From contig OZ260108.1 of NCBI GenBank assembly GCA_965284665.1, forward strand, positions 1,450,588-1,514,587: a DNA stretch of 64,000 nt, read 5' to 3'. The position numbers were made by a program, and so were the translations under genes. The notes beneath the pieces are model-generated. The model searched no databases, was not told the DNA's origin, and saw only the letters and a program-made list of their open reading frames with translations. Positions 1-24,174 of this stretch are shown here, piece by piece. The stretch's first letter is position 1. The number at the start of each line of letters is the position of its first letter. Source of the stretch: Sphingomonadaceae bacterium (lineage in GTDB: Bacteria; Pseudomonadota; Alphaproteobacteria; Sphingomonadales; Sphingomonadaceae).

Positions 1-2187
1 GTGGTTGACGGGATTCTCAAGACCAACACCGCCCAGCTGAACCAGGTCCAGGGCACGCTGCGCCAGGTCGAAATCCTGAAAGGTCCGCAGGGCGCGCTCT
101 ATGGCCGCAACGCTGCGGCCGGCGCGATCGTGCTGCAGACGCTGAAGCCCAAGGACGTGGTCGAGGGCGGCGCCAAGATCTCTTACGCCAACGAGAACAC
201 CTGGGATGCCTCGGCCTATATCTCGACCCCGCTGGGCGAAAGCGCCGGCCTGGTGGTGAGCGGCAGCTTCCAGCACACCGATGGCTTCTTCCGCAACATC
301 TTCCTCGGCAACAGCAAGACCGTGGATGACAAGGAATCGTTTAACGTCGACGGCCGCATGGTCGTCAAGGCGGGTGACAATACCGAGTTCGACGTGAAGG
401 TCCGTTATGCTGAATTCCACGGCGCCTCGCTGCCGTTCAACGCCGCGTTCCATCTGCCGAACTTCGCGGCGGTGAACCCGGCGTTCTACCAGGATGTCGA
501 CGCCCACGAGTTTCGCTTCTACAACAATATCCGCGCCACCAATGACCAGAAGAGCTTCGACGCCTCGATCAAGGTCGAGCACAACTTCGAGAGCATGAAG
601 CTGGTCGCCTGGGCGCTCTATTCGGACACCAATCAGGACCTGGTGGCCGATGGCACCTCGGCTGACTTTGCCCGTTACATCAGCGCGGCGCAGCCGGCGG
701 GAGCGGCAACGGTGGCATCGTGCTTCGCCACCACCGCAGCCAACACCGGATATCCGGTCAACCCGCCGGGCGGCATCGGCGCGATCCCGGTGCCGTTCAT
801 CTTCGCCCCGGCCAATGGCTCGACCTTCGGGCCATACAGCAACACCACTTGCGACGGCATCCAGTACCAGCTGCGCAACCAAAAGGACTTCAGTGCCGAA
901 GTGCGGCTGGTTTCGACCGGCGACGGTCCGGTCTCGTGGCAGCTGGGCGCCTATTACCTCAATATCGATCGCCAGACCGGCGTTAGCCTGAGCGGTGATA
1001 CGGGGGCAGGGGTGATCAAGAACCTCTACAATGGCCCGACCAGCGCGAACCCGACCTCGCTGCTGCTGGCTGACCAGTTCGACACCAATGTCTATGCCGC
1101 CTTCGGCTCGCTGGAATTCAAGCCGAACGACCAGTTCAAGGCCGGTCTGGCATTGCGCTATGATATCGAGGACCGTGCTTCCAGCTCGCTGGTGCCGACC
1201 GCGACCGATCCGTTCACCGGCGGCCCGATCAACCCCGGTCAGGCCTTTGGTCCGCTGACGCCGAAGTCCGCATCCTACAAGCAGCTCCAGCCGAAGATCA
1301 CGCTGAGCTACACCCCGTCGAGCGAGCTCAACATCTATGCCAACTGGGGTATCGGCTTCAAATCGGGCGGGTTCAACAACCAGGGTTCGTCGGCGATCAT
1401 CAACGGCAACTTCAACAACGGCGTCACCCCCGGCACGATCAACGCCAACGTCCGGATCAACGACGATTACCGCAAGGAAAAGTCGAGCGCGTTTGAAGCC
1501 GGGATTAAGGGCACGCTGCTCGACAATCGCATCACCTTCGATCTGGCAGGCTATTACACCCGCATCACCGACATGCAGTTCTTCGAATTCTTCGTCGGCA
1601 GCTTTGGCCTGCTGCGTGTGGTTTCGAACATCGACACGGTCGACGTGAAGGGTGCGGAAATCAACCTGACCGCCAAGGTGGTTGATGGGCTGAAGCTGTT
1701 CGGCTCGTTCAATGTGACCGACAGCGAGATCAAGAAGAACTCGTCGCGGCCCTACACCGTGGGCAACAAGTCGCCCTATACGGCTGACTGGACGCTCAAC
1801 GTCGGGGCGGACATCAAGGTGCCGGTCACCGACAGTCTGCGGATCACCGGCCGCGCCGATTACCGCCTGACCGGTCCGACCTGGTTCCACACCGTGCAGG
1901 ATCAGGAACGCCCGACCCTGTTCAGCGGCCTGCTGCCGATCTCGGCGCTGGCGCTGCCGCCCGTGGTCGGCAACGCCCGCTACGACGTGGCCCAGCGTGA
2001 CAAGTTCGGCGTGTTCAATGCCCGCCTGGGCCTTGAAACCGATCGCTACCACCTGGTCGCTTTTGCTGAGAACCTGTTCAACAAGAAGTACATCGCCGAA
2101 GCGATCCCCGCGATCGAGTTTGGCGGCTCGTTCATCTCGCCGGGCGGGCGCCGCCTGATCGGTGTCGAAGCGGGCATGAAGTTCTAA
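1..2187 (+). CDS. TonB-dependent receptor (5' end outside window)
   Basis: Plug motif VEILKGPQGALYGRNAAAGAI at the ORF start, beta-barrel-type repeats, C-terminal GMKF; the ORF begins mid-plug at base 1. Confidence 0.93.
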   Translation: MVDGILKTNTAQLNQVQGTLRQVEILKGPQGALYGRNAAAGAIVLQTLKPKDVVEGGAKISYANENTWDASAYISTPLGESAGLVVSGSFQHTDGFFRNIFLGNSKTVDDKESFNVDGRMVVKAGDNTEFDVKVRYAEFHGASLPFNAAFHLPNFAAVNPAFYQDVDAHEFRFYNNIRATNDQKSFDASIKVEHNFESMKLVAWALYSDTNQDLVADGTSADFARYISAAQPAGAATVASCFATTAANTGYPVNPPGGIGAIPVPFIFAPANGSTFGPYSNTTCDGIQYQLRNQKDFSAEVRLVSTGDGPVSWQLGAYYLNIDRQTGVSLSGDTGAGVIKNLYNGPTSANPTSLLLADQFDTNVYAAFGSLEFKPNDQFKAGLALRYDIEDRASSSLVPTATDPFTGGPINPGQAFGPLTPKSASYKQLQPKITLSYTPSSELNIYANWGIGFKSGGFNNQGSSAIINGNFNNGVTPGTINANVRINDDYRKEKSSAFEAGIKGTLLDNRITFDLAGYYTRITDMQFFEFFVGSFGLLRVVSNIDTVDVKGAEINLTAKVVDGLKLFGSFNVTDSEIKKNSSRPYTVGNKSPYTADWTLNVGADIKVPVTDSLRITGRADYRLTGPTWFHTVQDQERPTLFSGLLPISALALPPVVGNARYDVAQRDKFGVFNARLGLETDRYHLVAFAENLFNKKYIAEAIPAIEFGGSFISPGGRRLIGVEAGMKF

Positions 2188-2197
2188 GACCGCGATT

Positions 2198-2227
2198 GGC
2201 GGCCAGTGGCAGCAGCCATTGGCCGCC
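2198..2227 (+). terminator. Stem-loop after the TonB receptor (terminator-like, no U-tract)
   Basis: GGCGGCCAGTGG-cagcag-CCATTGGCCGCC, 12-bp stem with one G-U pair. Confidence 0.5.
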
Positions 2228-2252
2228 TGTCGATCATAAGGCGAAAGACCGG

Positions 2253-2267
2253 GTTGCATATTGCAAC
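2253..2267. promoter_or_regulatory. Palindromic operator candidate upstream of the RND operon
   Basis: GTTGCA-TAT-TGCAAC perfect inverted repeat ~10 bp before ATG 2278. Confidence 0.5.
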
Positions 2268-2277
2268 TCAATCAGCC

Positions 2278-3339
2278 ATGTCGCGGCAAATGCCTAACAA
2301 ATCGCGCCTTTTCATAGCTCCGCTGATTGCCCTGCTGGCGGCTTGCGGGGCTGAGCAAGTGCCAGAAAAGCCGGCGGATGTTGCCCTGCGGGTCAGTGTC
2401 GCCGTGGTTGGCCAGGAACTGGGCTCACCTTCGATCGAAGCTGCTGGTACCGCTGCGCTGCGCAAGGAAATCCCGCTGGGATTCACCACGCCCGGCCAAG
2501 TCGCGCGGATTTTGGTGCAGGAGGGGGACCGGGTCAGGCGCGGGCAACTGCTGGCCGTGCTCGATACCACCAGCGTTGGGGCCTCGCTTGAGGCGGCCGA
2601 TGCCGAACGCGATCGCGCCGCAGCTGAACTGGGGCGCCTCAAGCAACTCTATGCCCAGGGCTGGATCACCAAGGCGCGGCTTGAAGCGGCCGAGGCAGCC
2701 GCGCGCAGCGCCACCGCCAACCTTGCCGCGCGCCGGTTCTCGCTCGACACCGCGCGCGTTGTGGCCCCGGCCGATGGCATCATCCTGACCCGCGGCGCTG
2801 AGCCGGGGCAGATCGTCGATGCCGGTTCTCCGATTATCACGCTGGGCGATGCCGGCAGCGGTTTTGTCCTGCGCGTGCTGCTGGCAGATCGCGATGCCGT
2901 GCGCCTGCGGGCTGGGATCCCGGCCGAAGTACGCTTTGATGCCCTGCCGGGCGCTGTGCTGGCGGGGCAAGTGATCGAGGTTGGCGGGCGCTCCGATCGC
3001 GGCAGCGGTGCCTTTACCGCCGAAATCGCGCTAGCTCCCGACCAGCGGCTGCGTTCGGGCCTGGTCGGCCGTGCCAGAATCCTCGCCCCGGCAGCCGGTG
3101 GATCAACCCGTCTGGTCATCCCGCCGACCGCGATTTTTGCGGCCCGGGCCGATGAAGGCTTTGTCTTCGTCGTCGATGCCCAGCGCCGGGTGAAGGCCCG
3201 CAGCGTGACGCTTGGCCAGTTGTCCCCCGCGGGGGCGGAGATCCTCTCCGGCCTCAACCGGGGAGAGACCGTGGTCACTTCCGCGCTTGACCGGCTCCGC
3301 GACGGGGCGAAGGTCGACCCGGTTGGTACCCAGCCCTGA
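2278..3339 (+). CDS. RND efflux periplasmic adaptor (membrane fusion) lipoprotein
   Basis: Lipobox LAAC; lipoyl-like G-x-V-x-x-I-x-V-x-EGD-x-V-x-x-GQLLA; coiled coil; adjacent to the AcrB-family gene. Start 2278 or 2290. Confidence 0.92.
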   Translation: MSRQMPNKSRLFIAPLIALLAACGAEQVPEKPADVALRVSVAVVGQELGSPSIEAAGTAALRKEIPLGFTTPGQVARILVQEGDRVRRGQLLAVLDTTSVGASLEAADAERDRAAAELGRLKQLYAQGWITKARLEAAEAAARSATANLAARRFSLDTARVVAPADGIILTRGAEPGQIVDAGSPIITLGDAGSGFVLRVLLADRDAVRLRAGIPAEVRFDALPGAVLAGQVIEVGGRSDRGSGAFTAEIALAPDQRLRSGLVGRARILAPAAGGSTRLVIPPTAIFAARADEGFVFVVDAQRRVKARSVTLGQLSPAGAEILSGLNRGETVVTSALDRLRDGAKVDPVGTQP

Positions 3340-6300
3340 TGGGTTTGGTCTCGATCGCCGTCCGCCGCTGGCAGGTGACCTTTGTCACCTTCCTGTTGCT
3401 GGCGCTGCTCGGCTACAACGCGTTTCGTCAGATTCCCCGCGCGGTCGATCCCTATTTCCCGATCCCCGCAACGCTCGCCATTGTCACCCTGCCAGGGGCT
3501 GATGCGGCCGAGATCGAGGAGACAGTAGCCAAGCCGATCGAGCGCGCGTTGCAAGGGCTCGACAATGTGCGCGACATTCGCTCGACCTCCAGCGACGGTG
3601 TCGCCAACGTCCAGGTTTCGTTCGATTACGGCACCGATGCCGAACAGGCGCTCGACCGTACCGTGCGCGAGGTCAATGCACTGCGCCCGCAATTGCCCAG
3701 CGGCATAACGCGGTTCGACATCCGCCGGCCGCGCACCACCGAGGCGGCGATTTCCCAGATTGCGCTGGTGAGCGAGACCGCTTCATGGCGGCGGATGGAA
3801 AAGTATTCCGAGGATCTGCGCGACCGGCTCTCCGTATTGCGCGGGGTGCGCAACACACAGCTTTACGGGCTGGCTTCGCCCGAAGTGCGCGTGGCGCTTG
3901 ATCCGGCGCGACTGGCCGAGCGCAAACTGGCGCCAGCGGCGGTAGCCAATGCGATATCGCAGGGCGGGGCGGACGTGCCGGCCGGGGCGGTGGCATCGGG
4001 CAATCGCCGCTTCAATGTCCAGGCGGGCGGCGCTTTTCGCAGTCTGGAAGCGATCCGCGCGATCCCGCTGCGCGGCGGCGACGGGCAATTGCTGACCGTA
4101 GGCGACGTGGCCGCGGTCGATTGGGCGGAGGCTGAACGCCAGCACATCACCCGGCTGAACGGCCAGCGCGCGGTCTTCATCGGCGTGCGGCAAAAGGATG
4201 CGACCGATACCCTGGCACTGCGGGATTCGCTGCGCCAGGTGAAGGAGAAGTTTGCCGGCCAGTTGCCGCCCGACATCAAGCTGGTCACCGTCTTCGACCA
4301 GAGCAATGATATCGAGCGCAAACTCAATCAGCTCGCCAAGGATTTCATGATTGCCCTGGCGCTGGTGCTGATCACGCTTTTGCCGCTGGGACCGCGCGCT
4401 TCGCTGGTGGTGATGCTGTCGATCCCAACCTCATTGGCAATCGGCCTTACCGGGCTTGATATTCTGGGCTTCTCGCTCAACCAGCTGACCGTTTCGGGCT
4501 TCATCGTCGCGCTGGGTCTGCTGGTCGACGATTCGATCGTGGTGACCGAGAATATCGAACGCCACATCCGCATGGGTGAAGACCGGATCACGGCCGCGAT
4601 TCAGGGCACCAAGGAAATCACCATGGCGGTGATGGGCTCCACCGGGGTGCTGATCTTTGCCTTCCTGCCGCTGGCCAACCTGCCTGAGACCGCCGGCGAT
4701 TTTACCCGCAGCCTGCCGATGGCGGTGCTGTTAACGGTGGGTGCCTCATTGCTGGTCTCGCTGACGCTGGTCCCCTTTGCGGCGAGCCGGATCCTGCCGC
4801 CGCATGAAACCCACGGCGGCAACCGGTTCCTGCGCTGGGTGACCGAGCGGATCGAGCACTGGTACCGTCCCGCCTTGCATTGGAGCCTGGCCAACCCGCA
4901 CAAGACCGTATGGGGCGCGATGGCGGCCTGTGTGCTGATGTTCTTCACGATCCCGTGGATCGGCTTCAGCCTGTTCCCCAAGGCCGATGTGCCCTATTTC
5001 CTGGTCAGGATCGAAGCCCCGGAAGGTGCCAGCATCGTCGCCACTGACAAGGCGGTGCGCGATATTGCGGCGATCATGGCGAAGAAGCCCGAAGTGCTGG
5101 ACGTGATGGAGAACACCGGGCGTTCCAACCCGCAGATTTACTACAATGCGATCCCGCGTGAGTCCGATGCCCGGTTCGGGGAACTGTTCGTCACGCTGAA
5201 AACCTTTTCGCCCGAGGATACGCCCGCGCTGGTCGAGAAGCTGCGCCAGGAGCTGGAGAAGTATCCCGCAGCGCGCGTTACTGTTGAGCAGTTCGAGCAG
5301 GGGCCACCAGTCGATGCGCCAATCGCGATCCGGATCAGCGGGCCCGAGCTTGACGTGCTGAAGCGGCTTTCGGCCGAATTTGCCCAAACTGTCCGCAAGA
5401 CCGAGGGCACCCGCGACGTGGTCGATCCGCTGGCGATTGACCGGATCGATCTCGATCTGTCGGTCGATCCCGCCAAGGCAGGTCTGCTTAACGTGGCACC
5501 CGATGCTGTCCGCCGGACCCTGCGGCTGGCAATCTCGGGCGAACGAGCCAGCAACCTGCGCGATGCAGAGGGCGATTCCTATCCGGTGGTAGTGCGGATG
5601 CCATTCGAGCAGGAAGTGCCGATCACGGTGCTTGATCAGATCTATGTCAGCTCGCTGTCAGGTGCAGCGATTCCCTTGGCGCAATTGACTGTGCCAAAGC
5701 TGCAATCGGTCCCGTCTTCGATCAACCGATACAAGTTCGAACGTTCAGTGACGGTAACCTCATACGTTCAACAGGGCTTCCTCGCCTCAAAGGTCAACGA
5801 GGACGCCGTAGCGCGGGTTCGCAAGATACCGTTGCCGCCGGGCTATTCGATCAGTATCGGCGGCCAGGCCGAGATATCCGAGCGCAACCGCAGCGGGATC
5901 GGCGGGATCGCCCTGCTGGCGGTGTTCGGGATCCTGTCGGTGCTTGTGCTGGAATTCGGTCGCTTTCGCGAGGTCACCGTGGTGGCTGGCGTGGTTCCGC
6001 TGGGCCTGTTCGGCGGGCTGTGGGCGCTGATCCTGACCGGCAACTCGATGTCCTATCTGGCCACCATCGGGTTCATTGCGTTGATCGGAATCGAGATCAA
6101 GAATTCGATCCTGCTGGTCGATTTCACCACCCAGCTACGCCAGCAGGGGATGGAACTGATGGAGGCGATCGAGCGCGCAGGCGAAATCCGCTTTCTGCCG
6201 GTGCTGCTGACTTCGGTCACGGCGATCGGCGGGCTGCTTCCGCTGGCGCTGTCAGGCTCGCCGCTCTATGCGCCGCTGGCCTGGGTGATCATCGGCGGGC

Positions 6301-6386
6301 TGGTCTCTTCGACCCTGCTCAGCCGGATCGTCATTCCGGCGATGTACCTGCTACTGGTACGCGGCGCACCGCCACCGGAGAGCTGA
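3339..6386 (+). CDS. RND efflux permease, AcrB/AcrD/AcrF family
   Basis: 1015 aa; motifs GLLVDDSIVVTENI, KNSILLVDF, RFLPVLLTS; two TM bundles with large periplasmic loops. Confidence 0.95.
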   Translation: MGLVSIAVRRWQVTFVTFLLLALLGYNAFRQIPRAVDPYFPIPATLAIVTLPGADAAEIEETVAKPIERALQGLDNVRDIRSTSSDGVANVQVSFDYGTDAEQALDRTVREVNALRPQLPSGITRFDIRRPRTTEAAISQIALVSETASWRRMEKYSEDLRDRLSVLRGVRNTQLYGLASPEVRVALDPARLAERKLAPAAVANAISQGGADVPAGAVASGNRRFNVQAGGAFRSLEAIRAIPLRGGDGQLLTVGDVAAVDWAEAERQHITRLNGQRAVFIGVRQKDATDTLALRDSLRQVKEKFAGQLPPDIKLVTVFDQSNDIERKLNQLAKDFMIALALVLITLLPLGPRASLVVMLSIPTSLAIGLTGLDILGFSLNQLTVSGFIVALGLLVDDSIVVTENIERHIRMGEDRITAAIQGTKEITMAVMGSTGVLIFAFLPLANLPETAGDFTRSLPMAVLLTVGASLLVSLTLVPFAASRILPPHETHGGNRFLRWVTERIEHWYRPALHWSLANPHKTVWGAMAACVLMFFTIPWIGFSLFPKADVPYFLVRIEAPEGASIVATDKAVRDIAAIMAKKPEVLDVMENTGRSNPQIYYNAIPRESDARFGELFVTLKTFSPEDTPALVEKLRQELEKYPAARVTVEQFEQGPPVDAPIAIRISGPELDVLKRLSAEFAQTVRKTEGTRDVVDPLAIDRIDLDLSVDPAKAGLLNVAPDAVRRTLRLAISGERASNLRDAEGDSYPVVVRMPFEQEVPITVLDQIYVSSLSGAAIPLAQLTVPKLQSVPSSINRYKFERSVTVTSYVQQGFLASKVNEDAVARVRKIPLPPGYSISIGGQAEISERNRSGIGGIALLAVFGILSVLVLEFGRFREVTVVAGVVPLGLFGGLWALILTGNSMSYLATIGFIALIGIEIKNSILLVDFTTQLRQQGMELMEAIERAGEIRFLPVLLTSVTAIGGLLPLALSGSPLYAPLAWVIIGGLVSSTLLSRIVIPAMYLLLVRGAPPPES

Positions 6387-6429: not shown

Positions 6430-6458
6430 TTGACTTTGAAGTTGTCCGGACAAATCAT
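6430..6458 (+). promoter_or_regulatory. sigma70-like promoter with palindromic GntR/HutC-type operator TTGTCCGGACAA (6442-6453)
   Basis: TTGACT at 6430-6435; perfect 12-bp palindrome between the -35 and the putative -10; same core recurs at 12167 and 24132. Confidence 0.65.
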
Positions 6459-6505: not shown

Positions 6506-7318
6506 ATGTTTGCCGCCAATTCCTTCCTGTTCGTGCCTGGCTCGCGGCCTGACCGGTTCGCGAAGGCGCATGGCAGCGGGGCAGGGCTGACGGTGATCGA
6601 CCTGGAAGATGCGGTTCCCGCTGAAGAGAAGGCTGCCGCGCGCAACAACGCGCTCGCGCAGGTCGCCAGCGGCGAGGCGGGCTGGGCGATCCGCATCAAT
6701 GGCCTGGCGACTGCCGCCGGAATTGCCGATCTGGCCGCACTGATCGAGGCCGAACATCTGCCGCCGTTCCTGTTCGTGCCGATGGTCGAAAGCGCGGTGG
6801 AGATCGAGTTCATTGCCCGCGCGCTGGGTGAACCTTGCCCCGAGCTGATCCCGCTGATCGAAACGCCCAAGGGCCTGCGCCAGGCGGTTGCCATCGCTTC
6901 CGCGCCCATGGTCGGCGGCGTGATGTTCGGCGGCGGAGATTTTTCAGGCGAGCTGGGCGTGGCACTGGCCTGGGAGCCGCTGCTCGCCGCGCGCCAGGCA
7001 CTGGTCCTGGCCTGCGCCGAGGCGCGGGTGCCGGCGATCGACGTGCCGTGGATCAGTTTGGATGACGAAACCGGCCTTGCCGACGAGTGCGCCAAGGCCA
7101 AGGCACTGGGCTTTGCTGCCAAGGCTGCGATCCACCCCAGCCAGGTGGCGGCAATCGAAGCCGCCTTTACCCCGACCGCGGCAGAAGTTGCCGAGGCCGA
7201 GGCGGCGCTCGCTGCCTATGAGGCGGCCGGGGGCAAGGTAATCCGTTTCAAGGGCAAGATGCTGGAAGCACCGCTGGTCAAGCGTTACCAGGCCGTGCTC
7301 AGCCGGAAAGGGAACTGA
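6506..7318 (+). CDS. CitE/HpcH-family CoA-ester C-C lyase (citramalyl/malyl-CoA lyase-like, RipC-like)
   Basis: LFVPGSRPDRF, IDLEDAV, IRING, LIET, FGGGD, KAAIHPSQV motifs; RBS AGGAG before ATG 6506. Confidence 0.9.
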   Translation: MFAANSFLFVPGSRPDRFAKAHGSGAGLTVIDLEDAVPAEEKAAARNNALAQVASGEAGWAIRINGLATAAGIADLAALIEAEHLPPFLFVPMVESAVEIEFIARALGEPCPELIPLIETPKGLRQAVAIASAPMVGGVMFGGGDFSGELGVALAWEPLLAARQALVLACAEARVPAIDVPWISLDDETGLADECAKAKALGFAAKAAIHPSQVAAIEAAFTPTAAEVAEAEAALAAYEAAGGKVIRFKGKMLEAPLVKRYQAVLSRKGN

Positions 7319-7320
7319 CA

Positions 7321-7830
7321 ATGCGTGATGGGGCTATCGAAGTCGCACCGGGCCGCTACCGCGAGACCTTTGGTCGCTATTTCGAGGATTTCAACGTCGG
7401 CGACATCTATGAGCATCGCCCGGGCCGCACGATCAGCGAGACTGACAACACCTGGTTCAGCCTGCTGACGATGAACCAGCATCCGGCGCACTGCGATGCC
7501 GAATATGCCAGCAAGACCGAATTCGGAAAGTGCCTCGTCGCCTCGCCGCTGACCGTGGCGATCATGACCGGTCAGTCCGTGTCGGACGTCAGTCAGAAGG
7601 CGGTCGCCAACCTGGGCTGGAAGGAAATCCGGCTGCTGAAGCCGGTCTTTGCCGGGGATACGATCTATTCGGAAACCGAAGTGCTGGAAAAGCGCGAGTC
7701 CGACAAGCGCCCGCAGCAGGGCATCGTGACGATCAAGACCGTGGGCAAGAACCAGCACGGCGATGTCGTCTGCGATTTCGTGCGGATCATGCTGATCTGG
7801 AAGCGCGGCTTCGGGCCTGGTGACGACTAG
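7321..7830 (+). CDS. MaoC-family (R)-enoyl-CoA hydratase/dehydratase (RipB/Ich-like)
   Basis: YFEDFNVGDIYEHRPGRTISETDN, MNQHPAH, PVFAGDT hot-dog fold motifs. Confidence 0.88.
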   Translation: MRDGAIEVAPGRYRETFGRYFEDFNVGDIYEHRPGRTISETDNTWFSLLTMNQHPAHCDAEYASKTEFGKCLVASPLTVAIMTGQSVSDVSQKAVANLGWKEIRLLKPVFAGDTIYSETEVLEKRESDKRPQQGIVTIKTVGKNQHGDVVCDFVRIMLIWKRGFGPGDD

Positions 7831-7853
7831 GGCGACGACTAAGGAGAATACCG

Positions 7854-9041
7854 ATGGCAACCGCCGTGGACATGATGAGCGATCAGGGCCGCACGATCGA
7901 TCCGGCCGAGGAAGAAGCCTTCCTCGATGCGATCGACCGCTGGATCGAGCGTTCGGTCAAGCCGGTGATCCTGCATCACGACCATAACGATATCTGGCCC
8001 GAGCAACTGGTGCACGAGATGGTCGAAATGGGCCTGTTCGGCGCGACCATCGGCCAGGAATTCGGCGGCCTCGGCCTGCCGGCCACGACCTATGCCAAGA
8101 TCGTCATGCGGATCAGCTCCTACTGGATGGCGCTGACCGGCATCTTCAATTCGCACCTGATCATGGCGGCGGCGGTCGAACGCTTTGGCACAACGGCGCA
8201 GAAGGCCAAGTGGCTGCCCAAGTTCGCCAACGGCGAGATCCGCGGCGGCCTGGCCCTGACCGAACCCAATGCCGGGACCGATCTTCAGGCGATCCGCACC
8301 GTCGCCCGCCGCGATGGCGATCACTATGTCATCAACGGCACCAAGACCTGGATCTCCAACGCGCTCAACGGCTCCTGCTTTGCGCTTCTGGTCAAGACCG
8401 ATCCCGATGCCAATCCGCGCTACAAGGGGATGAGCCTGTTCATCGCCGACAAGCGCGAAGGCTTCACCACCGGCAAGAAGTTCGACAAGCTTGGCTACAA
8501 GTCGATCGACAGCGCCGAGCTGATCTTCGAGGACTATCGCATCCCGGCCGACCAGCTGATCGGCGGCGTCGAAGGGCAGGGCTTCTTCCAGGCCACCGGC
8601 GGGCTGGAACTGGGCCGGATCAACGTTGCGGCGCGCGGGGTCGGCCTGTCGGAAGGTTCGCTGCGGCTCGCCACCGAATATGCCCAGCAGCGCCAGACCA
8701 TGGGCAAGCCGATTTCGGAGCACCAGGCGATCCAGCTCAAGATCGGCGAAATGGTTACCCGCGCCCGCGCTGCCCGATTGCTCACGCTCGATGCTGCCGT
8801 GGCCTATGACAAGGGTGAGCGCTGCGACCTTGAAGCCGGCATGGCCAAGTACTTCGCCAGCGAGGCGGCCGTGGCCAACAGCCAGGAAGCCATGCGGATC
8901 TATGGCGGCTACTCCTATTCGAAGGAGTATGACATCGAACGCTTCTACCGCGATTCCATGCTGATGTGCATCGGTGAGGGCACCAACGAGATGCAGCGAA
9001 TGATCATCTCCAAGCAGTGGGTCAAACGGAACCCGGCGTGA
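7854..9041 (+). CDS. Acyl-CoA dehydrogenase
   Basis: ALTEPNAGTD, NGTKTWISN, KLGYK, IYGGYSY, IGEGTNEMQR (catalytic Glu). Confidence 0.95.
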   Translation: MATAVDMMSDQGRTIDPAEEEAFLDAIDRWIERSVKPVILHHDHNDIWPEQLVHEMVEMGLFGATIGQEFGGLGLPATTYAKIVMRISSYWMALTGIFNSHLIMAAAVERFGTTAQKAKWLPKFANGEIRGGLALTEPNAGTDLQAIRTVARRDGDHYVINGTKTWISNALNGSCFALLVKTDPDANPRYKGMSLFIADKREGFTTGKKFDKLGYKSIDSAELIFEDYRIPADQLIGGVEGQGFFQATGGLELGRINVAARGVGLSEGSLRLATEYAQQRQTMGKPISEHQAIQLKIGEMVTRARAARLLTLDAAVAYDKGERCDLEAGMAKYFASEAAVANSQEAMRIYGGYSYSKEYDIERFYRDSMLMCIGEGTNEMQRMIISKQWVKRNPA

Positions 9042-10249
9042 GCGAGCTGCACCTTCCCCTCTCGGGCTTCCGCGTCATCAGCGCCGAACAATACGGCGCG
9101 GGCCCCTATGGCACGATGTTCCTGGCCCAGCTGGGTGCCGAGGTGATCAAGATCGAGCCGCCGCAAAAGGACGGGAAGGGCGGCGGCGATACCGCGCGCG
9201 GCGTTGGGCCGCATTTCACGCGGCCGGGGGAAAGCGTCTATTTCCACGCCTTCAACCTCAACAAGCGCTCGCTCACCCTCGATCTCAATGCGCCCGAAGG
9301 ACAGGCAATCCTCCGCGATCTGGCCGCGACCAGCCATGCCGTCGTCAACAACCTGCGCGGCGATCTGCCGGCCAAGCTGGGCGTGACCTATAACGCCTTG
9401 AAGGACGTCAACCCGGCGATTGTCTGCGCGCACCTGTCGGCCTATGGGCGCGACAACGCGCGGGCCAAGTGGCCGGGTTATGACTACCTGATGCAGGCCG
9501 AGGCGGGCTTTTGCGCGCTGACCGGCGACCCCGACGGTGAGCCGCAGCGGATGGGGCTCTCGATGGTCGATTTCATGACCGGCACGATCATGGCGATTGG
9601 CCTGCTGGCGGCGCTGATCGATGCCCAGCGCAGCGGGCAGGGGCGCGATGTCGATACCGACCTGCTCTCCGCCGCCGTGCACCAGACCAGCTATCCGGCG
9701 TTGTGGTACATGAACAACGGCGACGTCACCGGCCGCACCCCGCGTTCGGCCCATCCCAGCGCCACCCCCAGCCAGATGGTCAAGGCGGCGGATGGCTGGA
9801 TGTTCGTGATGTGCCAGTTGCCCAAGTTCTGGGACATCATGGTCGAACGGATCGGCCACCCTGAACTGGGCCAGGATCCGCGCTTCAAGACCAACCCCGA
9901 TCGGCTGGCCAACCGCGCCGCGCTGACCGAAGTGCTCGATGGCATCTTCTCGCGCCAGCCGATGGCGCATTGGCAGGCGCTGCTGGAGGGCCACGTGCCG
10001 GTAGCGCCGGTCTACCAGCTGGATCAGGCGCTCGATAACCCGTGGCTGCGGACGATCGGCATGCGTGACAGCGTGGCCCATCCCGACAATCCCGATTTCC
10101 AGGTCCTTGCCAGCCCGATCAAGCTTGATGGCCAGCGCCTGCCCAACCGCGCCGGGCCGCTGCTGGGGGCAGACTCCGCCGCTATCCTGGCCGAGCTTGG
10201 CTATGGCGAGGATGACTTTGCCCGGCTACGCTCCGCCGGCGTGGTCTGA
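9038..10249 (+). CDS. CoA-transferase family III (CaiB/BaiF)
   Basis: AGPYGTMFLAQLGAEVIKIE, NLNKRSLTLDL, GYDYLMQAEAG, VDFMTG; GTGA overlap with the ACAD stop. Confidence 0.93.
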   Translation: MSELHLPLSGFRVISAEQYGAGPYGTMFLAQLGAEVIKIEPPQKDGKGGGDTARGVGPHFTRPGESVYFHAFNLNKRSLTLDLNAPEGQAILRDLAATSHAVVNNLRGDLPAKLGVTYNALKDVNPAIVCAHLSAYGRDNARAKWPGYDYLMQAEAGFCALTGDPDGEPQRMGLSMVDFMTGTIMAIGLLAALIDAQRSGQGRDVDTDLLSAAVHQTSYPALWYMNNGDVTGRTPRSAHPSATPSQMVKAADGWMFVMCQLPKFWDIMVERIGHPELGQDPRFKTNPDRLANRAALTEVLDGIFSRQPMAHWQALLEGHVPVAPVYQLDQALDNPWLRTIGMRDSVAHPDNPDFQVLASPIKLDGQRLPNRAGPLLGADSAAILAELGYGEDDFARLRSAGVV

Positions 10250-10260
10250 CCGAGGGGGCG

Positions 10261-11346
10261 ATGGGCAAGCTGAGCGGCATCACCGTTGTCGACCTGACGC
10301 AGTTCCTGCCGGGCCCGGCAATGACCGTAATGATGGCCGATCAGGGCGCGCGGGTGATCAAGATCGAGCCGCGCGGCGGTGAGCCGGTGCGGAGCCAGGC
10401 GCCGTTCGAGAATGGCCAGTCGGTCTGGTTTGCCAATCTCAACCGCGGCAAGGAAAGCCGGGTGCTTGACCTCAAGAGCGACGAGGGCAAGGCGGCGCTG
10501 CGGGCGCTGATCGCCGAGGCCGATGTCTTTGTCGAAGGCTTCCGACCCGGCGTGATGAAGCGGCTGGGGTTCGATTACCCGGCGGTCCGCGCGCTCAATC
10601 GGCGCATCGTTTACTGCTCGATCTCCGCCTTCGGACAAGAGGGTGAGCTGGCGCACCATCCGGCGCATGACATGGCGGTCCAGGCACTCGCCGGGTTCAT
10701 GAGTGTTAATGACGGGTCAGACGGCACGCCAGTGGTACCGGGCGCGCCCAGCGCCGATCTTGCGGCCGGGCTGACCGCGCTTTCGGCCGTGCTGATGGCG
10801 CTGATCGGGCGCGAGCAGACGGGCGAGGGTGACTATATCGATGTCGCCATGTTCGACAGCCTGCTGCCGTGGTGCGCGCATACCGCAGGCAGCGCTATCG
10901 CCGGCGGGCCATCGCCCAAGTCGAGCGAGCAGCGTTCGCTCGGCGGGGCGGGGTTCTACCAGGTCTACAAGACCAGCGACGGCCGCCACGTCGTGCTCGG
11001 CGGGCGCGAGATCAAGTTCGCCACCAACCTGCTGACGGCGCTGGGCCGACCGGATCTGATTGCCCTGGCCGAACAGGATGCGGGGCCCGTCCAGGCGCCG
11101 CTGATCGCCTTCCTGCGCGAAACCTTCCTCACCAGGACCCGCGACGAGTGGGTGGAGTGGTTCCACGACAAGGACGTGGCCTTTGCCCCGGTGCTCGATT
11201 TCCGCGAAGCGCTGGATGAGCCGCATGTCGCCCAGCGCGGCTTGCTGGTTGAGGCCGATGGCCGCCACCATATCGCCCCGCCGATCCGCTTTGCGGGTGA
11301 AGCGCCATGGCAACCTGGCCCGGTGCCCGAACTGGGCGAGGGTTAG
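10261..11346 (+). CDS. CoA-transferase family III (CaiB/BaiF), second paralog
   Basis: DLTQFLPGP, GARVIKIE, NRGKES, EGFRPGVM, HDMAVQALAG, ADLAAG. Confidence 0.93.
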   Translation: MGKLSGITVVDLTQFLPGPAMTVMMADQGARVIKIEPRGGEPVRSQAPFENGQSVWFANLNRGKESRVLDLKSDEGKAALRALIAEADVFVEGFRPGVMKRLGFDYPAVRALNRRIVYCSISAFGQEGELAHHPAHDMAVQALAGFMSVNDGSDGTPVVPGAPSADLAAGLTALSAVLMALIGREQTGEGDYIDVAMFDSLLPWCAHTAGSAIAGGPSPKSSEQRSLGGAGFYQVYKTSDGRHVVLGGREIKFATNLLTALGRPDLIALAEQDAGPVQAPLIAFLRETFLTRTRDEWVEWFHDKDVAFAPVLDFREALDEPHVAQRGLLVEADGRHHIAPPIRFAGEAPWQPGPVPELGEG

Positions 11347-11352
11347 GGGATG

Positions 11353-12096
11353 TCAGCCGTCGACGTCGATATGCATCGAGTAGGCGAAGCGGTCGCCGGG
11401 ATGGTGGCTGACCGAGATTTCGAAAACGCGGCCCTTGGGGTCGATATAGCAGCGCAGAATCCGCAGCACCGGGCTGCCGCGCTTCAGATCCAGCGCCTTG
11501 GCAATATCGGCGCTGGCGGCCACCGCCTGGATATCCTGGGTAACCTTGCCGACGCTGACGCCCGCGAGCTGCTCGATCTGGCTGAACAGCGTGCCCGCGC
11601 CCAGGTCCAGCTTGGCCACGGCGGCATCGACGCTTTCGTGGAAATAGGCATCGGTCGCGGCAATCGGCTGGCCGTCGAGCTGCGGACTGCGCACGCCGCG
11701 GAAGCAGGTCCAGGCGCCGCTGGTGTCCTCGGCAATCTGCTCGGAAATATCGCGCGGCAGATCGCCGCGGCCGCGCGGCTCGTAGGTCACGTGGGTATCA
11801 CGCGCGTACTGCAGGATTTCGCCCACGTTGGAGAGCGGCTGGTGCAGCGTGCCGCCGCGCGCCGAGGCCGGCTGGACCACCGTGCCCGAGCCGCGCTTGC
11901 GGGCAATCAGCCCTTCGTTCTGCAGCCGGCGCAGCGCCTCGCGAATGGTAAAGCGCGACACGCCATAGCGCTGGCACAGGTCGCTCTCGGTCGGAAACTG
12001 ATCGCGCGCGGAAAACTTGCCGGAGAGGATTTCGGCGCGCAGTTCCCCGGCAACTTGCAGATAGCGGGGGGCTTCACGCTCACGCGGAATGGTCAT
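11353..12096 (-). CDS. GntR family regulator, HutC subfamily (wHTH + UTRA)
   Basis: PRYLQVAGELRAEILSG...PTESDLCQRYGVSRFTIREALRRL plus C-terminal UTRA-like domain; likely start ATG 12096. Confidence 0.92.
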   Translation of the reverse strand: MTIPREREAPRYLQVAGELRAEILSGKFSARDQFPTESDLCQRYGVSRFTIREALRRLQNEGLIARKRGSGTVVQPASARGGTLHQPLSNVGEILQYARDTHVTYEPRGRGDLPRDISEQIAEDTSGAWTCFRGVRSPQLDGQPIAATDAYFHESVDAAVAKLDLGAGTLFSQIEQLAGVSVGKVTQDIQAVAASADIAKALDLKRGSPVLRILRCYIDPKGRVFEISVSHHPGDRFAYSMHIDVDG

Positions 12097-12140
12097 GCTG
12101 GCCTTCAATCCTTGCTCCCATCGGCTCCACGGGGGCGCCC

Positions 12141-13373
12141 ATGAGCGAGCCCCTGCTGGTCCAACTTGTCCGGACACTAGCGCGCCCGATCACGGAAAGC
12201 GATAGGGCGCGTGCGCGGCTCCACTTGCTGGACTGGCTCGCCTGTGTCGCGGGCGCGCGCCAGACGCAAGTGGCCAAGGTGCTGTATGAGGCCGACCTGG
12301 GCGGTGCGCGCCGGGCCGGTTGGCTGGGCGGCGTGCTGGAGATGGACGATGTCCACCGCGCCGCACTGCTCCATCCCGGGCCGGTTATCTGGGCTGCGGC
12401 GCTCGAGGCGGCGGGCGATGTCGATGCCGATCTGGACGCCGTGCTTGATGGCGCTGTGCGCGGCTATCAGGCGATGATCGCGATCGGCGCCAGCTTCGAT
12501 GCGCATCACTATGCCCACTATCATAACACCGCGACGGCGGGCTCGTTCGGTGCCGCTGCGGCAGCCGGATCGGTGCTGAGCCTGGACGAAGGGCAGATGG
12601 TTGCGGCGCTCAGCAATGCCGGGTCGACCACTGGCGGCCTCTGGCAGATGCGCCACGAGGCCGGGATGACCAAGCAATGGCACGTCGCCATGGCCGGGAA
12701 CAATGGCTACTTCGCCGCCTATATGGCCTCGCGAGGGCTCTCCGGTACGGCTTCGGTGCTGGACGGGCCGCAAGGCCTTTACGCGGCGACCTGCGATGCG
12801 CCGAAGCCGCTGGAGCTGGGTGAGGGCTGGCGCATTCACGAGGTCAGCTTCAAGCCTTGGGCGGCCTGTCGCCATGCCCACCCGGTGATCGACTGCGCGC
12901 TGGAATTGCGGGCGCAGGGCAAGCTTGTCGCGCCGTTCCGGGTCGAGACTTATGCCGATGCCATCGCCTTCTGCGACCGGCCCAACCCGGTAACCGAGGT
13001 CGATGCCAAGTTCAGCCTGCAGCATGCCGTGGCCGTGATCGCCAGTGGACGCGAGGCGAAGCCGGAAGACTTTACGCCTGAGGCGATTGCCGAGCTGGCC
13101 CCGCTGCGGGCACAGGTTTCGATTTCGGAAGACAAAGCAATTACAGCGCGTTACCCAGCACACTTCGGTGCACGTGTGAATGGACTGGAACTGATCGACA
13201 CTCGCGGCGATCCGGAGCGGCCGGTGGATGAGGCGGCCATTCGGCACAAGATGCATACCCTTGCTGCCTGGGGCGGGCTGCCCGCCGATGAAGCCGAACG
13301 CGCCTGCGCCTTGGCGCTGGATGGCGATGATGCAGCGGCGATCGCTGACCTGCTGGAGGACTGGCTGGGATGA
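12141..13373 (+). CDS. MmgE/PrpD family protein
   Basis: LLDWLAC, LEMDDVH...HPGPV, KPWAACRHAH, AKFSLQ motifs. Confidence 0.9.
   Translation: MSEPLLVQLVRTLARPITESDRARARLHLLDWLACVAGARQTQVAKVLYEADLGGARRAGWLGGVLEMDDVHRAALLHPGPVIWAAALEAAGDVDADLDAVLDGAVRGYQAMIAIGASFDAHHYAHYHNTATAGSFGAAAAAGSVLSLDEGQMVAALSNAGSTTGGLWQMRHEAGMTKQWHVAMAGNNGYFAAYMASRGLSGTASVLDGPQGLYAATCDAPKPLELGEGWRIHEVSFKPWAACRHAHPVIDCALELRAQGKLVAPFRVETYADAIAFCDRPNPVTEVDAKFSLQHAVAVIASGREAKPEDFTPEAIAELAPLRAQVSISEDKAITARYPAHFGARVNGLELIDTRGDPERPVDEAAIRHKMHTLAAWGGLPADEAERACALALDGDDAAAIADLLEDWLG
12166..12177. promoter_or_regulatory. Second copy of the operator (TTGTCCGGACAC), inside the 5' end of the mmgE/prpD CDS and ~70 bp upstream of gntR
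   Basis: 11/12 match to the 6442-6453 palindrome. Confidence 0.55.
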
Positions 13374-13396
13374 ACCTCTTCACCCACCAACTCCAT

Positions 13397-13484
13397 CGTC
13401 GGCCCGTGCTTGACACGGGCCTTGGCTGTTCTTCGCGCAGCGGCGCAGGAAGAAGCCCAGCCCCGTGTCAAGCACGGGGTGACG
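13397..13484. repeat. CGTC-type REP palindrome dimer
   Basis: CGTCGGCCCGTGCTTGACACGGGCC...GCCCCGTGTCAAGCACGGGGTGACG; inverted arms; same unit at 23521-23604. Confidence 0.85.
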
Positions 13485-13500
13485 GAAGGTGGGTAGGGCG

Positions 13501-14778
13501 GTGACTCCCACGCAAGCCATTCTGCAATTTGCTGCCAAGCCTCATGAGCTGCCCGGGACTGTCCGCGCCGATGCGGTGCGATTGCTGGGCGATACCCTGG
13601 CAGTCGGCGCAGCGGGGACGACCGCGCCGGGGGCCGAAGCCATCCTGGCGGCGGCGCGGGCGATGGGCAGCGGCGCCGATGCCCGCCTGATCGGCACGGC
13701 CGAACGCTTGCCCGCACCGGGGGCGGCCTTCGTCAACGGCTATCGGATCCACTGCCTGGAATGGGACGCGGTCCACGAACCGGCCGTGGTTCACGCCATG
13801 AGCGTCGTGACCGCAGCCCTTGGCGCAGCGATTGACCGCAAGGGCGGCTGCGATCCCGAACACGCGCTGGTGGCGCTCGCCATCGGCGTTGATGTCGCTT
13901 CGGGCCTCGGCATTGCCGCGGACTCGGCGCTCAGTTTCTTCCGTCCGGCCACGGCCGGGGTGATCGGGGCAGCGCTGGCCGTGGCGCGGATCGATGGTGC
14001 ACCGCTGGAGCATGCGCTGGGCCTGGCCTATTCGAGCGCAGCCGGGACGATGCAGGCGCACGTCGAAGGCTCGATCACCCTGCCATTCCAGATCGCCAAT
14101 GCCGCCCGCGCGGCGGTGACTGCCAGCGATCTGGCCAAGGCCGGCTTCACCGCGCCGCTCGATCCGCTGGAGGGGCCGTTCGGGTACTTCAAGCTGATCG
14201 ATCAGGGCGACCTGTCGCGCTATACCCGCGAGCTTGGTCAGGTCTGGCGGATTGCCGAGATCAGCACCAAGCCGTTCCCGTCGGGCCGGGCCAGCCATGC
14301 GGCGCTGGGGGCCTTGCAGGCCTTGGCAGGGCGGGGCGTCGAGCGGATCGAACTCGCCTGTCCCCCGCTGATCCACCGTCTGGTCGGGCGGCCTTACAAG
14401 TCTGACATGACGCCTGCTTATGCGAGGCTGTGCCTGCCGTTCCTGGCGGCGCTGATGCTCACCGACGGCCGGATCGACCCGCGCCGCTTCACGGCGGAAA
14501 ACTTCGCCGATCCGGCGCTCGCGGCGCTGGCCGGCAAGGTCGCGCTGGTGGCGGACGGCAATGCCGATCCCAACGCCCTTTTCCCGCAGGAACTGCGCGT
14601 CACGGTGGGCGGCGCCACGCAGACCATCGCCGTGCCGCACACGCTGGGCAGCCCCGATGCGCCGCTTTCGCCGGCCCAGACCCAGGCAAAGCTTGATTTC
14701 GCCCGTGAACTTGCGCCGGCCGGACACGACCCGCGCCTGTTCACCGATCCCCTGGCCTATTTCACGGACCCGACATGA
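13501..14778 (+). CDS. MmgE/PrpD family protein, second divergent paralog
   Basis: LLGDTLAVGAAG, LEWDAVHEPAVVH, KPFPSGRASH; likely GTG start 13501 (ORF opens at 13489). Confidence 0.9.
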   Translation: MTPTQAILQFAAKPHELPGTVRADAVRLLGDTLAVGAAGTTAPGAEAILAAARAMGSGADARLIGTAERLPAPGAAFVNGYRIHCLEWDAVHEPAVVHAMSVVTAALGAAIDRKGGCDPEHALVALAIGVDVASGLGIAADSALSFFRPATAGVIGAALAVARIDGAPLEHALGLAYSSAAGTMQAHVEGSITLPFQIANAARAAVTASDLAKAGFTAPLDPLEGPFGYFKLIDQGDLSRYTRELGQVWRIAEISTKPFPSGRASHAALGALQALAGRGVERIELACPPLIHRLVGRPYKSDMTPAYARLCLPFLAALMLTDGRIDPRRFTAENFADPALAALAGKVALVADGNADPNALFPQELRVTVGGATQTIAVPHTLGSPDAPLSPAQTQAKLDFARELAPAGHDPRLFTDPLAYFTDPT

Positions 14779-16133
14779 GTTTCCCGACTTACTTCGAAGC
14801 CTTCGACATCAAGCAGATGCTGGCCGATTACCCGGTCGGGAATGCCTTTACCGCGCGCTATCGCAATATCAGCCGGGATGAGATCTTCGCGATCCAGGAT
14901 GCCCAGTTCCGGCGGCTGATGCAGCGCGGCTGGCAGATCCCGTTCTACCAGCGCCTGTGGGGCGCGCAGGGGATCGAGCCAGGCGACATCATGGGCCTCG
15001 CCGACATCACCAAGCTGCCGGTCTATGACAAGTCGGACCTGATGGCCTCGGTCAACGAGCACCCGCCCTATGGCGATTTCGACGGGCGTGGCGATACGCC
15101 GGTGGTGTTCCACACCACCAGCGGCACCACTGGCCGACCACAACCGCTGATGTTCGGGCCCAAGGGGCGCGAGGTGACCAACCTGCTGGTCGGGCGGATG
15201 TACCGCTGGATGGGGCTGAAGCCGGAAGACGTGGTCCATTCGGTCTATGGCCACGGCATGATCAACGGCGGGCATTACATCCGCGAGGCGGTGACGCACT
15301 TCACCAATTCGCTGTTCCTGTCCGCCGGGACGGGGATCGAAACACGCTCGGTCAACCAGGTGAACCTGCTGGCGGACTTCGGGGTGACGGTGATGGTCGG
15401 CTTCGTCGATTACATCAGGAAGCTGGCCGAAGTTGCTGAAGCGGAGCAGCTTTTTGACCGGATCAAGCTGCGGATGATCATCGGCCACCTTGGCACCGAA
15501 GACCGCGCCGCGACCGAAGCGGCCTGGCACGGCGCCAAGGCCTATGACTGGTACGGGGTTGGCGATACCGGCTCGATCGCCGGCGAGGGGCCTGACCGCG
15601 ACGGGCTCTATGTCTGGGAAGATGCGCAGTACCTCGAGCTGCTCGATATCGAGAGCGGCACGCCGGTGGCCAGGGGAGAGACCGGGGACATGGTCGTAAC
15701 CTGCCTGTTCAAGGACGACATCGCCCCCTGCATCCGCTTCAACACCCACGACATCACCCATGAGCTCGATGGGCGGGGCGAGCTGGGCTTCAAGCGGATC
15801 GCCGGTTTCAAGGGCCGCAGCGACAACATGGTCAAGCTGCGCGGGATCAACCTGTTCCCCCACGCCATCGCCGCGCTGATCGAGAACCGGCCCGACCTGA
15901 CCGGTGAATATGTCTGCCACCTGCGCCGCGATGCCGCGACCCAGCGCGACGACATGGTGGTGACGATCGAAAGCCGCGGCGGCAGCAACGCGGGCGAACT
16001 GGCCGAAGTGCTGCGCCGGGGCCTGGGCGTGGAAGTGGCGGTTCAGCTCTGCGCGCCGGGCGAAACGGCCGCCGCAACCCAGATTGATACCCGCCAGAAG
16101 CCGATCCGCCTGATCGACGAGCGCGGTGTGTAA
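14775..16133 (+). CDS. Phenylacetate-CoA ligase (PaaK)-like acyl-CoA ligase
   Basis: P-loop HTTSGTTGRP, YGVGD, GRSDNMVKLRGINLFP. Confidence 0.88.
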   Translation: MSFPTYFEAFDIKQMLADYPVGNAFTARYRNISRDEIFAIQDAQFRRLMQRGWQIPFYQRLWGAQGIEPGDIMGLADITKLPVYDKSDLMASVNEHPPYGDFDGRGDTPVVFHTTSGTTGRPQPLMFGPKGREVTNLLVGRMYRWMGLKPEDVVHSVYGHGMINGGHYIREAVTHFTNSLFLSAGTGIETRSVNQVNLLADFGVTVMVGFVDYIRKLAEVAEAEQLFDRIKLRMIIGHLGTEDRAATEAAWHGAKAYDWYGVGDTGSIAGEGPDRDGLYVWEDAQYLELLDIESGTPVARGETGDMVVTCLFKDDIAPCIRFNTHDITHELDGRGELGFKRIAGFKGRSDNMVKLRGINLFPHAIAALIENRPDLTGEYVCHLRRDAATQRDDMVVTIESRGGSNAGELAEVLRRGLGVEVAVQLCAPGETAAATQIDTRQKPIRLIDERGV

Positions 16134-17290: not shown

Positions 17291-17303
17291 AGGGAGAGAA
17301 ACC

Positions 17304-17609
17304 ATGCGCATCGTCTGCCTGTTCAACCTGAAGGAAGGCGCCAGCCGCGAAGCCTATGAAGCCTGGGCGCGGGGGACCGACATTCCCGGCGTCAATGCGC
17401 TCGGCTCGGTCCGCGGCTTCACTGTCCACCGCGCCACCGGCCTGTTCGGTTCGGATGCCAAGCCGCCCTATGATTACATCGAGGTGATCGACATTCACGG
17501 CATGGATGCCTTCGTGGCCGATGTCTCCGATCCCGAATTCCAGAAGGTAGCCGCCGGGTTTGGCGAATTTACCGACAACCCGACCTTCATCCTGACCGAG
17601 GACCTCTGA
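17304..17609 (+). CDS. REDY-like protein HapK / EthD-like dimeric alpha-beta barrel
   Basis: LFNLK...YEAWARGTDIPGVNAL.SV, PPYDYIEVIDI pattern, 101 aa; family recognised from memory. Confidence 0.72.
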   Translation: MRIVCLFNLKEGASREAYEAWARGTDIPGVNALGSVRGFTVHRATGLFGSDAKPPYDYIEVIDIHGMDAFVADVSDPEFQKVAAGFGEFTDNPTFILTEDL

Positions 17610-17611
17610 AA

Positions 17612-24089: not shown

Positions 24090-24130
24090 CGCAGCGCTCC
24101 TCAGGGGATCAGACGCGCAGCATTGCAAAG

Positions 24131-24142: not shown

Positions 24143-24174
24143 ATCCATAGTCCTTGGCAGCTGAAGGACCTGTC

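Follow-up and report, generated by a model that had tools for sequence, protein, structure and literature searches.

A five-gene operon within a large catabolic regulon of Alphaproteobacteria, with a probable role in the cleavage of methylsuccinate-like diacids

The 64,000-nucleotide stretch of Sphingomonadaceae DNA analyzed here (contig OZ260108.1, positions 1,450,588 to 1,514,587; hereafter the window) harbors a five-gene operon encoding a CitE/HpcH-type coenzyme A (CoA)-ester lyase, a MaoC-type hydratase, an acyl-CoA dehydrogenase (ACAD), and two family III CoA-transferases (CT1 and CT2). By analogy with characterized enzymes, the operon probably directs the CoA-dependent, beta-oxidation-like cleavage of a methylsuccinate-like 2-substituted succinate to acetyl-CoA and a 2-oxoacid. 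The operon is one part of a large catabolic regulon that probably degrades a small nitrogen-containing ring compound.

Gene content, operon structure, shared operator, conservation, and co-inheritance were all read directly from the genomes. Open reading frames and Pfam matches place the five genes on the plus strand at 6506–11346, in DNA of about 65% GC, and confirm both the positions and the set of families given in a preliminary description of this locus. The RipC-like lyase (6506–7318; 270 aa) matches HpcH_HpaI (E 4e-29) and C-C_Bond_Lyase, and the single-domain, RipB-like MaoC (R)-hydratase (7321–7830; 169 aa) matches MaoC (E 2e-20) and MC_hydratase (E 4e-23). The ACAD (7854–9041; 395 aa) contains three ACAD domains (E 1e-43, 3e-25, and 2e-22), and CT1 (9038–10249; 403 aa) and CT2 (10261–11346; 361 aa) each match CoA_transf_3 (E 1e-106 and 4e-104, respectively). 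The GTG at 9038 was taken as the start of CT1 and shares the tetranucleotide GTGA with the stop codon of the ACAD gene; the gene junctions are +2, +23, −4, and +11 nt in operon order. The sole promoter-like match between 6300 and 12300 is a sigma-70-like TTGACT-17-AATCAT on the plus strand (6430–6458). Its spacer, a classic place for a repressor site, contains the perfect palindrome TGTCCGGACA (6443–6452), referred to below as the operator. From its sequence, the five-gene unit is predicted to be one co-transcribed, repressible operon.

A scan of species-representative genomes with PrpD1, the first gene of the neighboring operon, recovered 80 related loci. The lyase, hydratase, ACAD, CT1, and CT2 genes are found in the same fixed order and orientation, within 4.7–5.7 kb, in 49 of these 80 loci, and the arrangement is therefore well beyond chance; a PaaK-like ligase is also present in 47 of the 49. 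Among the carriers are Novosphingobium, Erythrobacter, Sphingorhabdus, Parasphingorhabdus, Sphingopyxis, Hyphomonas, Henriciella, Parvularculaceae, Rhodobacterales, and Hyphomicrobiaceae, and the closest relatives of the window are Novosphingobium metagenome-assembled genomes that share 90–99% protein identity across the cluster. Near-constant neighbors are a HutC-type regulator, two MmgE/PrpD genes, the ligase, and an amidase, often joined by a PuuE-type ring hydrolase. HapK-SDR-PuuE-like genes stand immediately before the five genes, forming a single unit with them, in three genomes of Hyphomonadaceae type and in G175, which belongs to another class; G175 carries a 60% identical ligase on a different contig. 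Among 300 evenly sampled Alphaproteobacteria, a ligase orthologue is found in 12, ten of which also contain the hydratase. All five proteins retain many invariant positions over 29–51 orthologues, including the presumed catalytic segments.

The operator ties the operon to its surroundings. In almost every related locus, across classes and from sphingomonads to Burkholderiales and Wenzhouxiangella, the 10-mer, usually followed by A, occurs both 50–60 nt ahead of the lyase gene and shortly before PrpD1. Across the related loci it additionally precedes units encoding a TonB-dependent receptor, DUF1838, SnoaL, or an amine oxidase. The 3.1-Mb source genome contains 11 exact copies, all inside 107 kb (C1:1367883-1474728), whereas the reversed control pattern occurs once in the same genome. 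Three of the copies lie in the window: that of the five-gene operon, one at the start of the PrpD1 operon (12167–12176), and one (24132–24141) near a SnoaL/DUF4440 gene on the minus strand (23631–24311), a homologue of which recurs downstream of the cluster in sphingomonad loci. Near the eight sites outside the window are genes for hydrolases (two PuuE-like, one of the isochorismatase family, and a 478-aa alpha/beta hydrolase), for three TonB-dependent receptors, for an FAD monooxygenase, for two SAM methyltransferases of about 400 aa, and for DUF1330; two DUF1838 genes, accompanied by an MFS transporter, are also found there. It is this clustering of 11 operator copies in 107 kb, together with the recurrence of the operator across taxa, that identifies the five-gene operon as one component of a large regulon.

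A GntR/HutC-family regulator gene, with a GntR helix-turn-helix and a UTRA effector domain, lies on the minus strand (11353–12096), where it converges on CT2 and is transcribed away from the PrpD operon, and is kept at this position in most related loci. With the operator in the operon promoter and repeated before the partner operons, this regulator is the predicted binder. The PrpD operon itself comprises nine plus-strand genes (12141–20920) encoding PrpD1, PrpD2, a PaaK-like ligase of the adenylating type, an amidase-signature amidase, a HapK/EthD-like protein, an SDR, a PuuE-type hydrolase of the deacetylase fold, a crotonase, and a VOC-like protein. An extra upper pathway feeding the five-gene module had been suggested in the preliminary description, and the shared operator, shared regulator, and co-inheritance all support that link.

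Among solved structures, the lyase is most similar to RipC of Yersinia pestis (3qll), at 196 bits and, by eye, about 48% identity over its full length. Scores are lower for human CLYBL (109 bits), 8khl (97 bits), a Mycobacterium tuberculosis Rv2498c-type CitE (about 97 bits), and malyl-CoA lyase 4l9y (about 87 bits). From its deposited name, “probable acyl-CoA lyase beta chain,” we take 8khl to be PA0883. The printed alignment indicates that the RipC-shared motifs LEDAV, VES, GGxD, and IHP are retained, and these motifs, the HpcH_HpaI fold, and an acidic residue in the C-terminal loop place the protein in the CitE/HpcH-HpaI superfamily. Membership in the Rip equivalogs was assessed with the NCBIfam models NF038242 (RipC/Ccl, cut-off 375 bits) and NF038241 (RipB/Ich, cut-off 340 bits). 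No protein in 400 sampled Pseudomonadota genomes reached the cut-off of the RipC_Ccl model; four of these genomes matched it at E ≤1e-60 (218–231 bits), and all four carry the same kind of module. A search for family members returned 150 representatives without names, and a quick tree of nameless representatives was a poorly resolved star, in which the cluster lyases of different taxa did not form one clade. Lyase orthologues are labeled only “CoA ester lyase” by NCBI, a look-up of protein clusters at 90% identity returned generic names only, and a tblastn search of plasmids for named reference sequences gave no result.

The best solved relatives of the hydratase are beta-methylmalyl/mesaconyl-CoA hydratases, and 54 of its 169 positions are invariant in 41 orthologues. 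The ACAD, which is 80–98% identical across sphingomonads, matched no NCBIfam Mcd model and scores 149 bits against (2S)-methylsuccinyl-CoA dehydrogenase of the ethylmalonyl pathway (8ciw). Its GEGT segment, which normally holds the catalytic Glu of ACADs, is retained across orthologues. For CT1 the best models are succinate-glutarate and succinyl-CoA:mesaconate CoA-transferases, all below threshold, and for CT2 the best model is CoA:oxalate CoA-transferase (224 bits, also below threshold); the succinyl-CoA:mesaconate model gives about 190 bits for both. Both transferases thus resemble CoA-transferases for dicarboxylates, and they share 29% identity, CT2 being the divergent paralogue. Both belong to family III, with full-length CoA_transf_3 matches and the Asp of a G-(Y/H)-D…Q-A motif that we take to be the conserved-Asp motif of this family. 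The CT1 motif PGYDYLMQAEAG is invariant in orthologues.

A pathway can be assembled from these families; its substrate, its individual reactions, and the direction in which it would run are all extrapolated from family chemistry. CT1 would load CoA onto the free diacid. CT2 could then re-position the CoA, serve a second acid or stereoisomer, or form a hetero-oligomer with CT1; models for such roles are the mesaconyl-CoA C1-C4 transferase, which shifts CoA between carboxyl groups, and BbsE, which pairs with BbsF. The ACAD would set a 2,3 double bond to give a mesaconyl-C4-CoA-type enoyl-CoA, to which the RipB-like, (R)-specific hydratase would add water, yielding a citramalyl-CoA-type 3-hydroxy-3-carboxyacyl-CoA. 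Retro-aldol cleavage by the RipC-like, Mg-dependent lyase would finally release acetyl-CoA (or another short acyl-CoA) and a 2-oxoacid. A 2-oxoacid product is favored because most known CitE-type lyase substrates carry a carboxylate on the hydroxyl-bearing carbon. Its identity would be set by the substituent, and it would be pyruvate only if the substituent is methyl, so the pyruvate plus acyl-CoA proposed in the preliminary description is one possible outcome, glyoxylate from C1-type chemistry being an alternative. The same set of families performs this kind of chemistry as Ict/Ich/Ccl with a methylsuccinyl-C4-CoA dehydrogenase (PMC12290011).

The diacid is probably made inside the cell rather than imported as such. 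The starting compound would be a small nitrogen heterocycle entering by way of TonB-dependent receptors. A PuuE-type cyclic amide/imide hydrolase could open the ring and the amidase could hydrolyze the resulting amide to the diacid, with the PaaK-like ligase adding CoA and PrpD-type isomerization or dehydration occurring along the way. A more specific version of this scheme, which we regard as a long shot, is that the regulon constitutes an undescribed pathway mineralizing natural cyclic imides, the module cleaving the resulting acid to acetyl-CoA and a 2-oxoacid other than pyruvate. Candidate compounds are a dioxopiperidine-carboxylate and the maleimide or succinimide fragments that remain when chlorophyll, haem, or bilins are oxidized. 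Ring opening by PuuE-type hydrolases and the amidase would in that case yield a substituted succinate or maleate with two or three carboxyl groups, and CT2 might be needed because the acid is unsymmetrical.

Several points weigh against the proposed cleavage of a 2-substituted succinate. The best NCBIfam match of the lyase is RipC_Ccl at 227 bits, far short of the 375-bit cut-off, and that of the hydratase is RipB_Ich at 225 bits (E 4e-67), likewise far short of 340, with 2-methylfumaryl-CoA hydratase next at 84 bits; Rip equivalog membership is thus not attained by either protein. The best solved relative of the ACAD is an uncharacterized protein, FadE3 of Mycobacterium smegmatis (4iv6; 399 bits). 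The role assigned to CT2 is a guess, and the regiochemistry could be of the C4 type (2-oxoacid plus acetyl-CoA) or of the C1 type (glyoxylate plus a longer acyl-CoA). Finally, of the whole cluster, Burkholderiales and Wenzhouxiangella loci retain regulator, PrpD1, PrpD2, ligase, and amidase, with the five genes absent within 10 kb. Because these taxa keep one half alone over that distance, the five-gene half and the PrpD-ligase-amidase half are separable.

The most serious alternative is that the module is a plain operon for itaconate or other C5-branched dicarboxylates (mesaconate, citraconate, or methylsuccinate) that merely lies beside an unrelated hydrolase operon. We consider this doubtful, although it accounts for RipB and RipC being the closest characterized families, for a family set equal to that described in PMC12290011, and for the identity to stand-alone units of methylsuccinate appearance (59–73% for hydratase and ACAD, 49–53% for CT1). 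It does not explain why the operator and regulator are common to the hydrolase operon in several bacterial classes, or why HapK-SDR-PuuE-like genes are joined to the module in other taxa. CT2 is an additional gene, the Rip model scores are sub-threshold, and the ACAD tree tends to part the regulon copies from the stand-alone copies (SH-aLRT 93, not decisive). In addition, 24 same-genus genomes contain no lyase orthologue (best hit ≤38% identity), which indicates that the cluster is accessory in this lineage.

Chemistry of the C1 type, as in the ethylmalonyl-CoA pathway or methylaspartate cycle, would convert a mesaconyl-C1-CoA-type intermediate by way of a beta-substituted malyl-CoA to glyoxylate and a longer acyl-CoA, for example propionyl-CoA, or succinyl-CoA from a tricarballylate-like acid. 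The solved relatives of the hydratase and its MC_hydratase match agree with such a route, CitE-type lyases include malyl-CoA and beta-methylmalyl-CoA lyases, and both transferases reach about 190 bits with the succinyl-CoA:mesaconate model, though the best model for CT2 is CoA:oxalate. It is nevertheless unlikely, given that the hydratase scores 225 bits with RipB_Ich against 84 and the lyase 196 bits with RipC against 87 with the malyl-CoA lyase Mcl (4l9y). Membership in the ethylmalonyl-CoA pathway proper was rejected: neither a crotonyl-CoA carboxylase nor a mutase is among the annotated cluster genes, the hydratase is a one-domain protein, and the ACAD reaches only 149 bits with 8ciw, a (2S)-methylsuccinyl-C1-CoA dehydrogenase. 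Least likely of all, and to our minds very improbable, is that the lyase acts as a CLYBL-like thioesterase or synthase, with no C–C cleavage in vivo, so that the module only interconverts diacids. CLYBL-type enzymes do have thioesterase and synthase side activities, and the acid of the C-terminal loop is Glu in the window lyase and Asp in RipC, CLYBL, and 8khl. Glu and Asp alternate at this position among clear lyase orthologues, however, with Glu in 46 of 155 family representatives, and the Glu-for-Asp change was accordingly rejected as a functional switch; moreover, the RipC-shared motifs are intact and the lyase gene is strictly kept at the head of the operon.

The cleavage of a 2-substituted succinate proposed here can be compared with three known systems. 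In the preliminary description the module was presented as a core resembling those of Yersinia and Pseudomonas. The Rip-like character and the connection to an upper pathway stand, and RipC and RipB are indeed the nearest characterized relatives of the lyase and hydratase (NCBIfam models and 3qll), but strict membership in either the Rip or the Pseudomonas cluster fails. As in ripABC, the itaconate degradation operon of Y. pestis, the lyase and hydratase genes are adjacent. Unlike in ripABC, the lyase precedes the hydratase, an ACAD is added, and two family III transferases replace RipA; Pfam scans of the window cluster genes revealed no RipA-type (AcetylCoA_hyd_C) protein, and the complete Yersinia three-gene set is thus not present. 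The module is also controlled by a HutC-type repressor together with hydrolases, and its hosts are environmental sphingomonads rather than pathogens. A RipA-like family I CoA-transferase (AcetylCoA_hyd_C) is confined to some distant forms of the cluster, in Hyphomonadaceae and Rhodobacterales. In Rhodobacterales and Parvularculaceae loci (L067, L091, L093) such a gene separates the regulator from PrpD1, and the family III transferases are present as well.

The five-gene itaconate-methylsuccinate cluster of Pseudomonas aeruginosa (PA0878–PA0883) and Cupriavidus necator, which encodes Ich, Mcd, Msi, Ict, and Ccl (PMC12290011, PMC9875883), has its families in common with the module (family III CoA-transferase, ACAD, hydratase, CitE-type lyase, and MmgE/PrpD), and in both a saturated branched diacid is, or is proposed to be, dehydrogenated, hydrated, and cleaved. 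The module lyase, by contrast, scores 97 bits with 8khl, the presumed PA0883 and thus an (S)-citramalyl-CoA lyase, against 196 with RipC. In the known cluster the MmgE/PrpD methylsuccinate isomerase gene lies directly beside the methylsuccinyl-C4-CoA dehydrogenase gene (PMC12290011), whereas in the module the ACAD gene lies between those for the hydratase and CT1, and the PrpD genes belong to a divergent operon on the far side of CT2 and the regulator. Neither lyase similarity nor gene arrangement therefore matches the Pseudomonas type. Further differences are the two transferases, the two very divergent PrpD proteins, and the VOC-like protein (20021–20920; 299 aa), whose previously suggested likeness to the glyoxalase-family PA0880 (127 aa; PMC9875883) extends to the superfamily level only. 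The C. necator cluster is reported to have a LysR-type regulator (PMC13491972). That of the module is of the GntR/HutC type, and a PuuE-type hydrolase, a ligase, and an amidase are linked to the module.

In the beta-oxidation of benzylsuccinate (BbsEF, BbsG, BbsH, BbsCD, BbsAB), a two-subunit family III CoA-transferase is followed by an ACAD that gives an itaconyl-CoA-type product. The resemblance, in a substituted succinate, two family III transferase proteins, and an ACAD, is one of analogy only. The module differs from this route in having a MaoC rather than a crotonase hydratase, a CitE-type lyase in place of thiolysis, and aerobic hosts; no thiolase or glycyl-radical genes were seen in the cluster.

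Simpler relatives of the module are more widespread than the regulon. Hydratase homologues (53–67% identity) occur in 48 of the 300 sampled Alphaproteobacteria, four times the ligase count. In 20 examined genomes (L120–L139; for example G446, G614, G656, G505, and G587), the hydratase gene often lies in a stand-alone Hyd-(PrpD)-ACAD-CT unit, and these units encode a hydratase 59–66%, an ACAD 59–73%, and a CT1-like protein 49–53% identical to those of the window. They frequently hold a PrpD gene, and most are without the lyase, CT2, the operator, and the ligase. Because PrpD adjoins ACAD, the signature used by Gonner et al. (PMC12290011), they may represent alphaproteobacterial methylsuccinate-type clusters. 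In one of them (L123), a PA0883-type lyase was considered and rejected, the open reading frame after the transferase being an alpha/beta hydrolase. Regulon and stand-alone ACADs fall largely on opposite sides of the ACAD tree, with a few exceptions and at the SH-aLRT support given above. The regulon version is set apart by CT2, the RipC-like lyase, and the operator; the second CoA-transferase remarked on in the preliminary description is thus a gene that separates the module from the simpler units.

The itaconate/methylsuccinate pathway is known in a three-gene form from pathogens and a five-gene form from soil bacteria. The module mixes both, combining a Yersinia-like lyase and hydratase with a Pseudomonas-like ACAD and family III transferase, and adding a second transferase. 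Many Alphaproteobacteria of fresh and marine waters carry the regulon, as do some Beta- and Gammaproteobacteria. Identification of its substrate would reveal where branched dicarboxylates of five or more carbons come from in natural waters and soils, would assign roles to DUF1838, to a clade of PaaK-like ligases, and to two orphan clades of MmgE/PrpD proteins, and would add enzymes for branched-diacid conversion. Literature searches on the cluster, on DUF1838, and on Rip genes in Sphingomonas and Novosphingobium found nothing relevant.

In the neighboring PrpD operon, PrpD1 and PrpD2 share 27% identity, are both very divergent MmgE/PrpD proteins, and match known PrpD structures weakly (≤67 bits). 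A search of a protein atlas with the ligase returned only the generic “phenylacetate-CoA ligase family.” The PuuE-type hydrolase of the window retains the Glu/His/Trp triad and the His259 motif of metal-independent PuuE, and enzymes of this family, such as BpIH, cleave cyclic imides hydrolytically (PMC11424739). The start codons of the regulator and PrpD1 genes are 44 nt apart, and the operator copy at 12167–12176 falls 27 nt inside the longest PrpD1 reading frame. In non-Novosphingobium loci the PrpD1-side operator is upstream of PrpD1. At the window locus PrpD1 may begin elsewhere than at the start of its longest frame, or its repression may work differently. A 264-aa plus-strand open reading frame at 11350–12144 was rejected as a gene, having no family match, the Ala/Gly/Arg-rich composition of a shadow frame, and the GntR/UTRA gene on the opposite strand.

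In several loci (L069, L074, L078, and L094 of Burkholderiales and Wenzhouxiangella; L037, L038), the PrpD1-PrpD2-ligase-amidase core adjoins genes for a flavin amine oxidase, DUF1838, and a small cytochrome c, which carry the same operator. This layout is reminiscent of cytochrome-c-linked amine oxidases such as NicA2/CycN. Directly upstream of the five-gene operon, plus-strand genes at 1–6386 encode a TonB-dependent receptor truncated at the edge of the window, a membrane-fusion protein of the HlyD type, and an RND pump of the AcrB type. They were rejected as members of the unit, being without an exact operator and kept only in the closest Novosphingobium relatives. On the downstream side, the cluster is bounded by a minus-strand peptidase S46 gene of the dipeptidyl-peptidase 7/11 type (21250–23382), a position likewise kept only in close Novosphingobium relatives.

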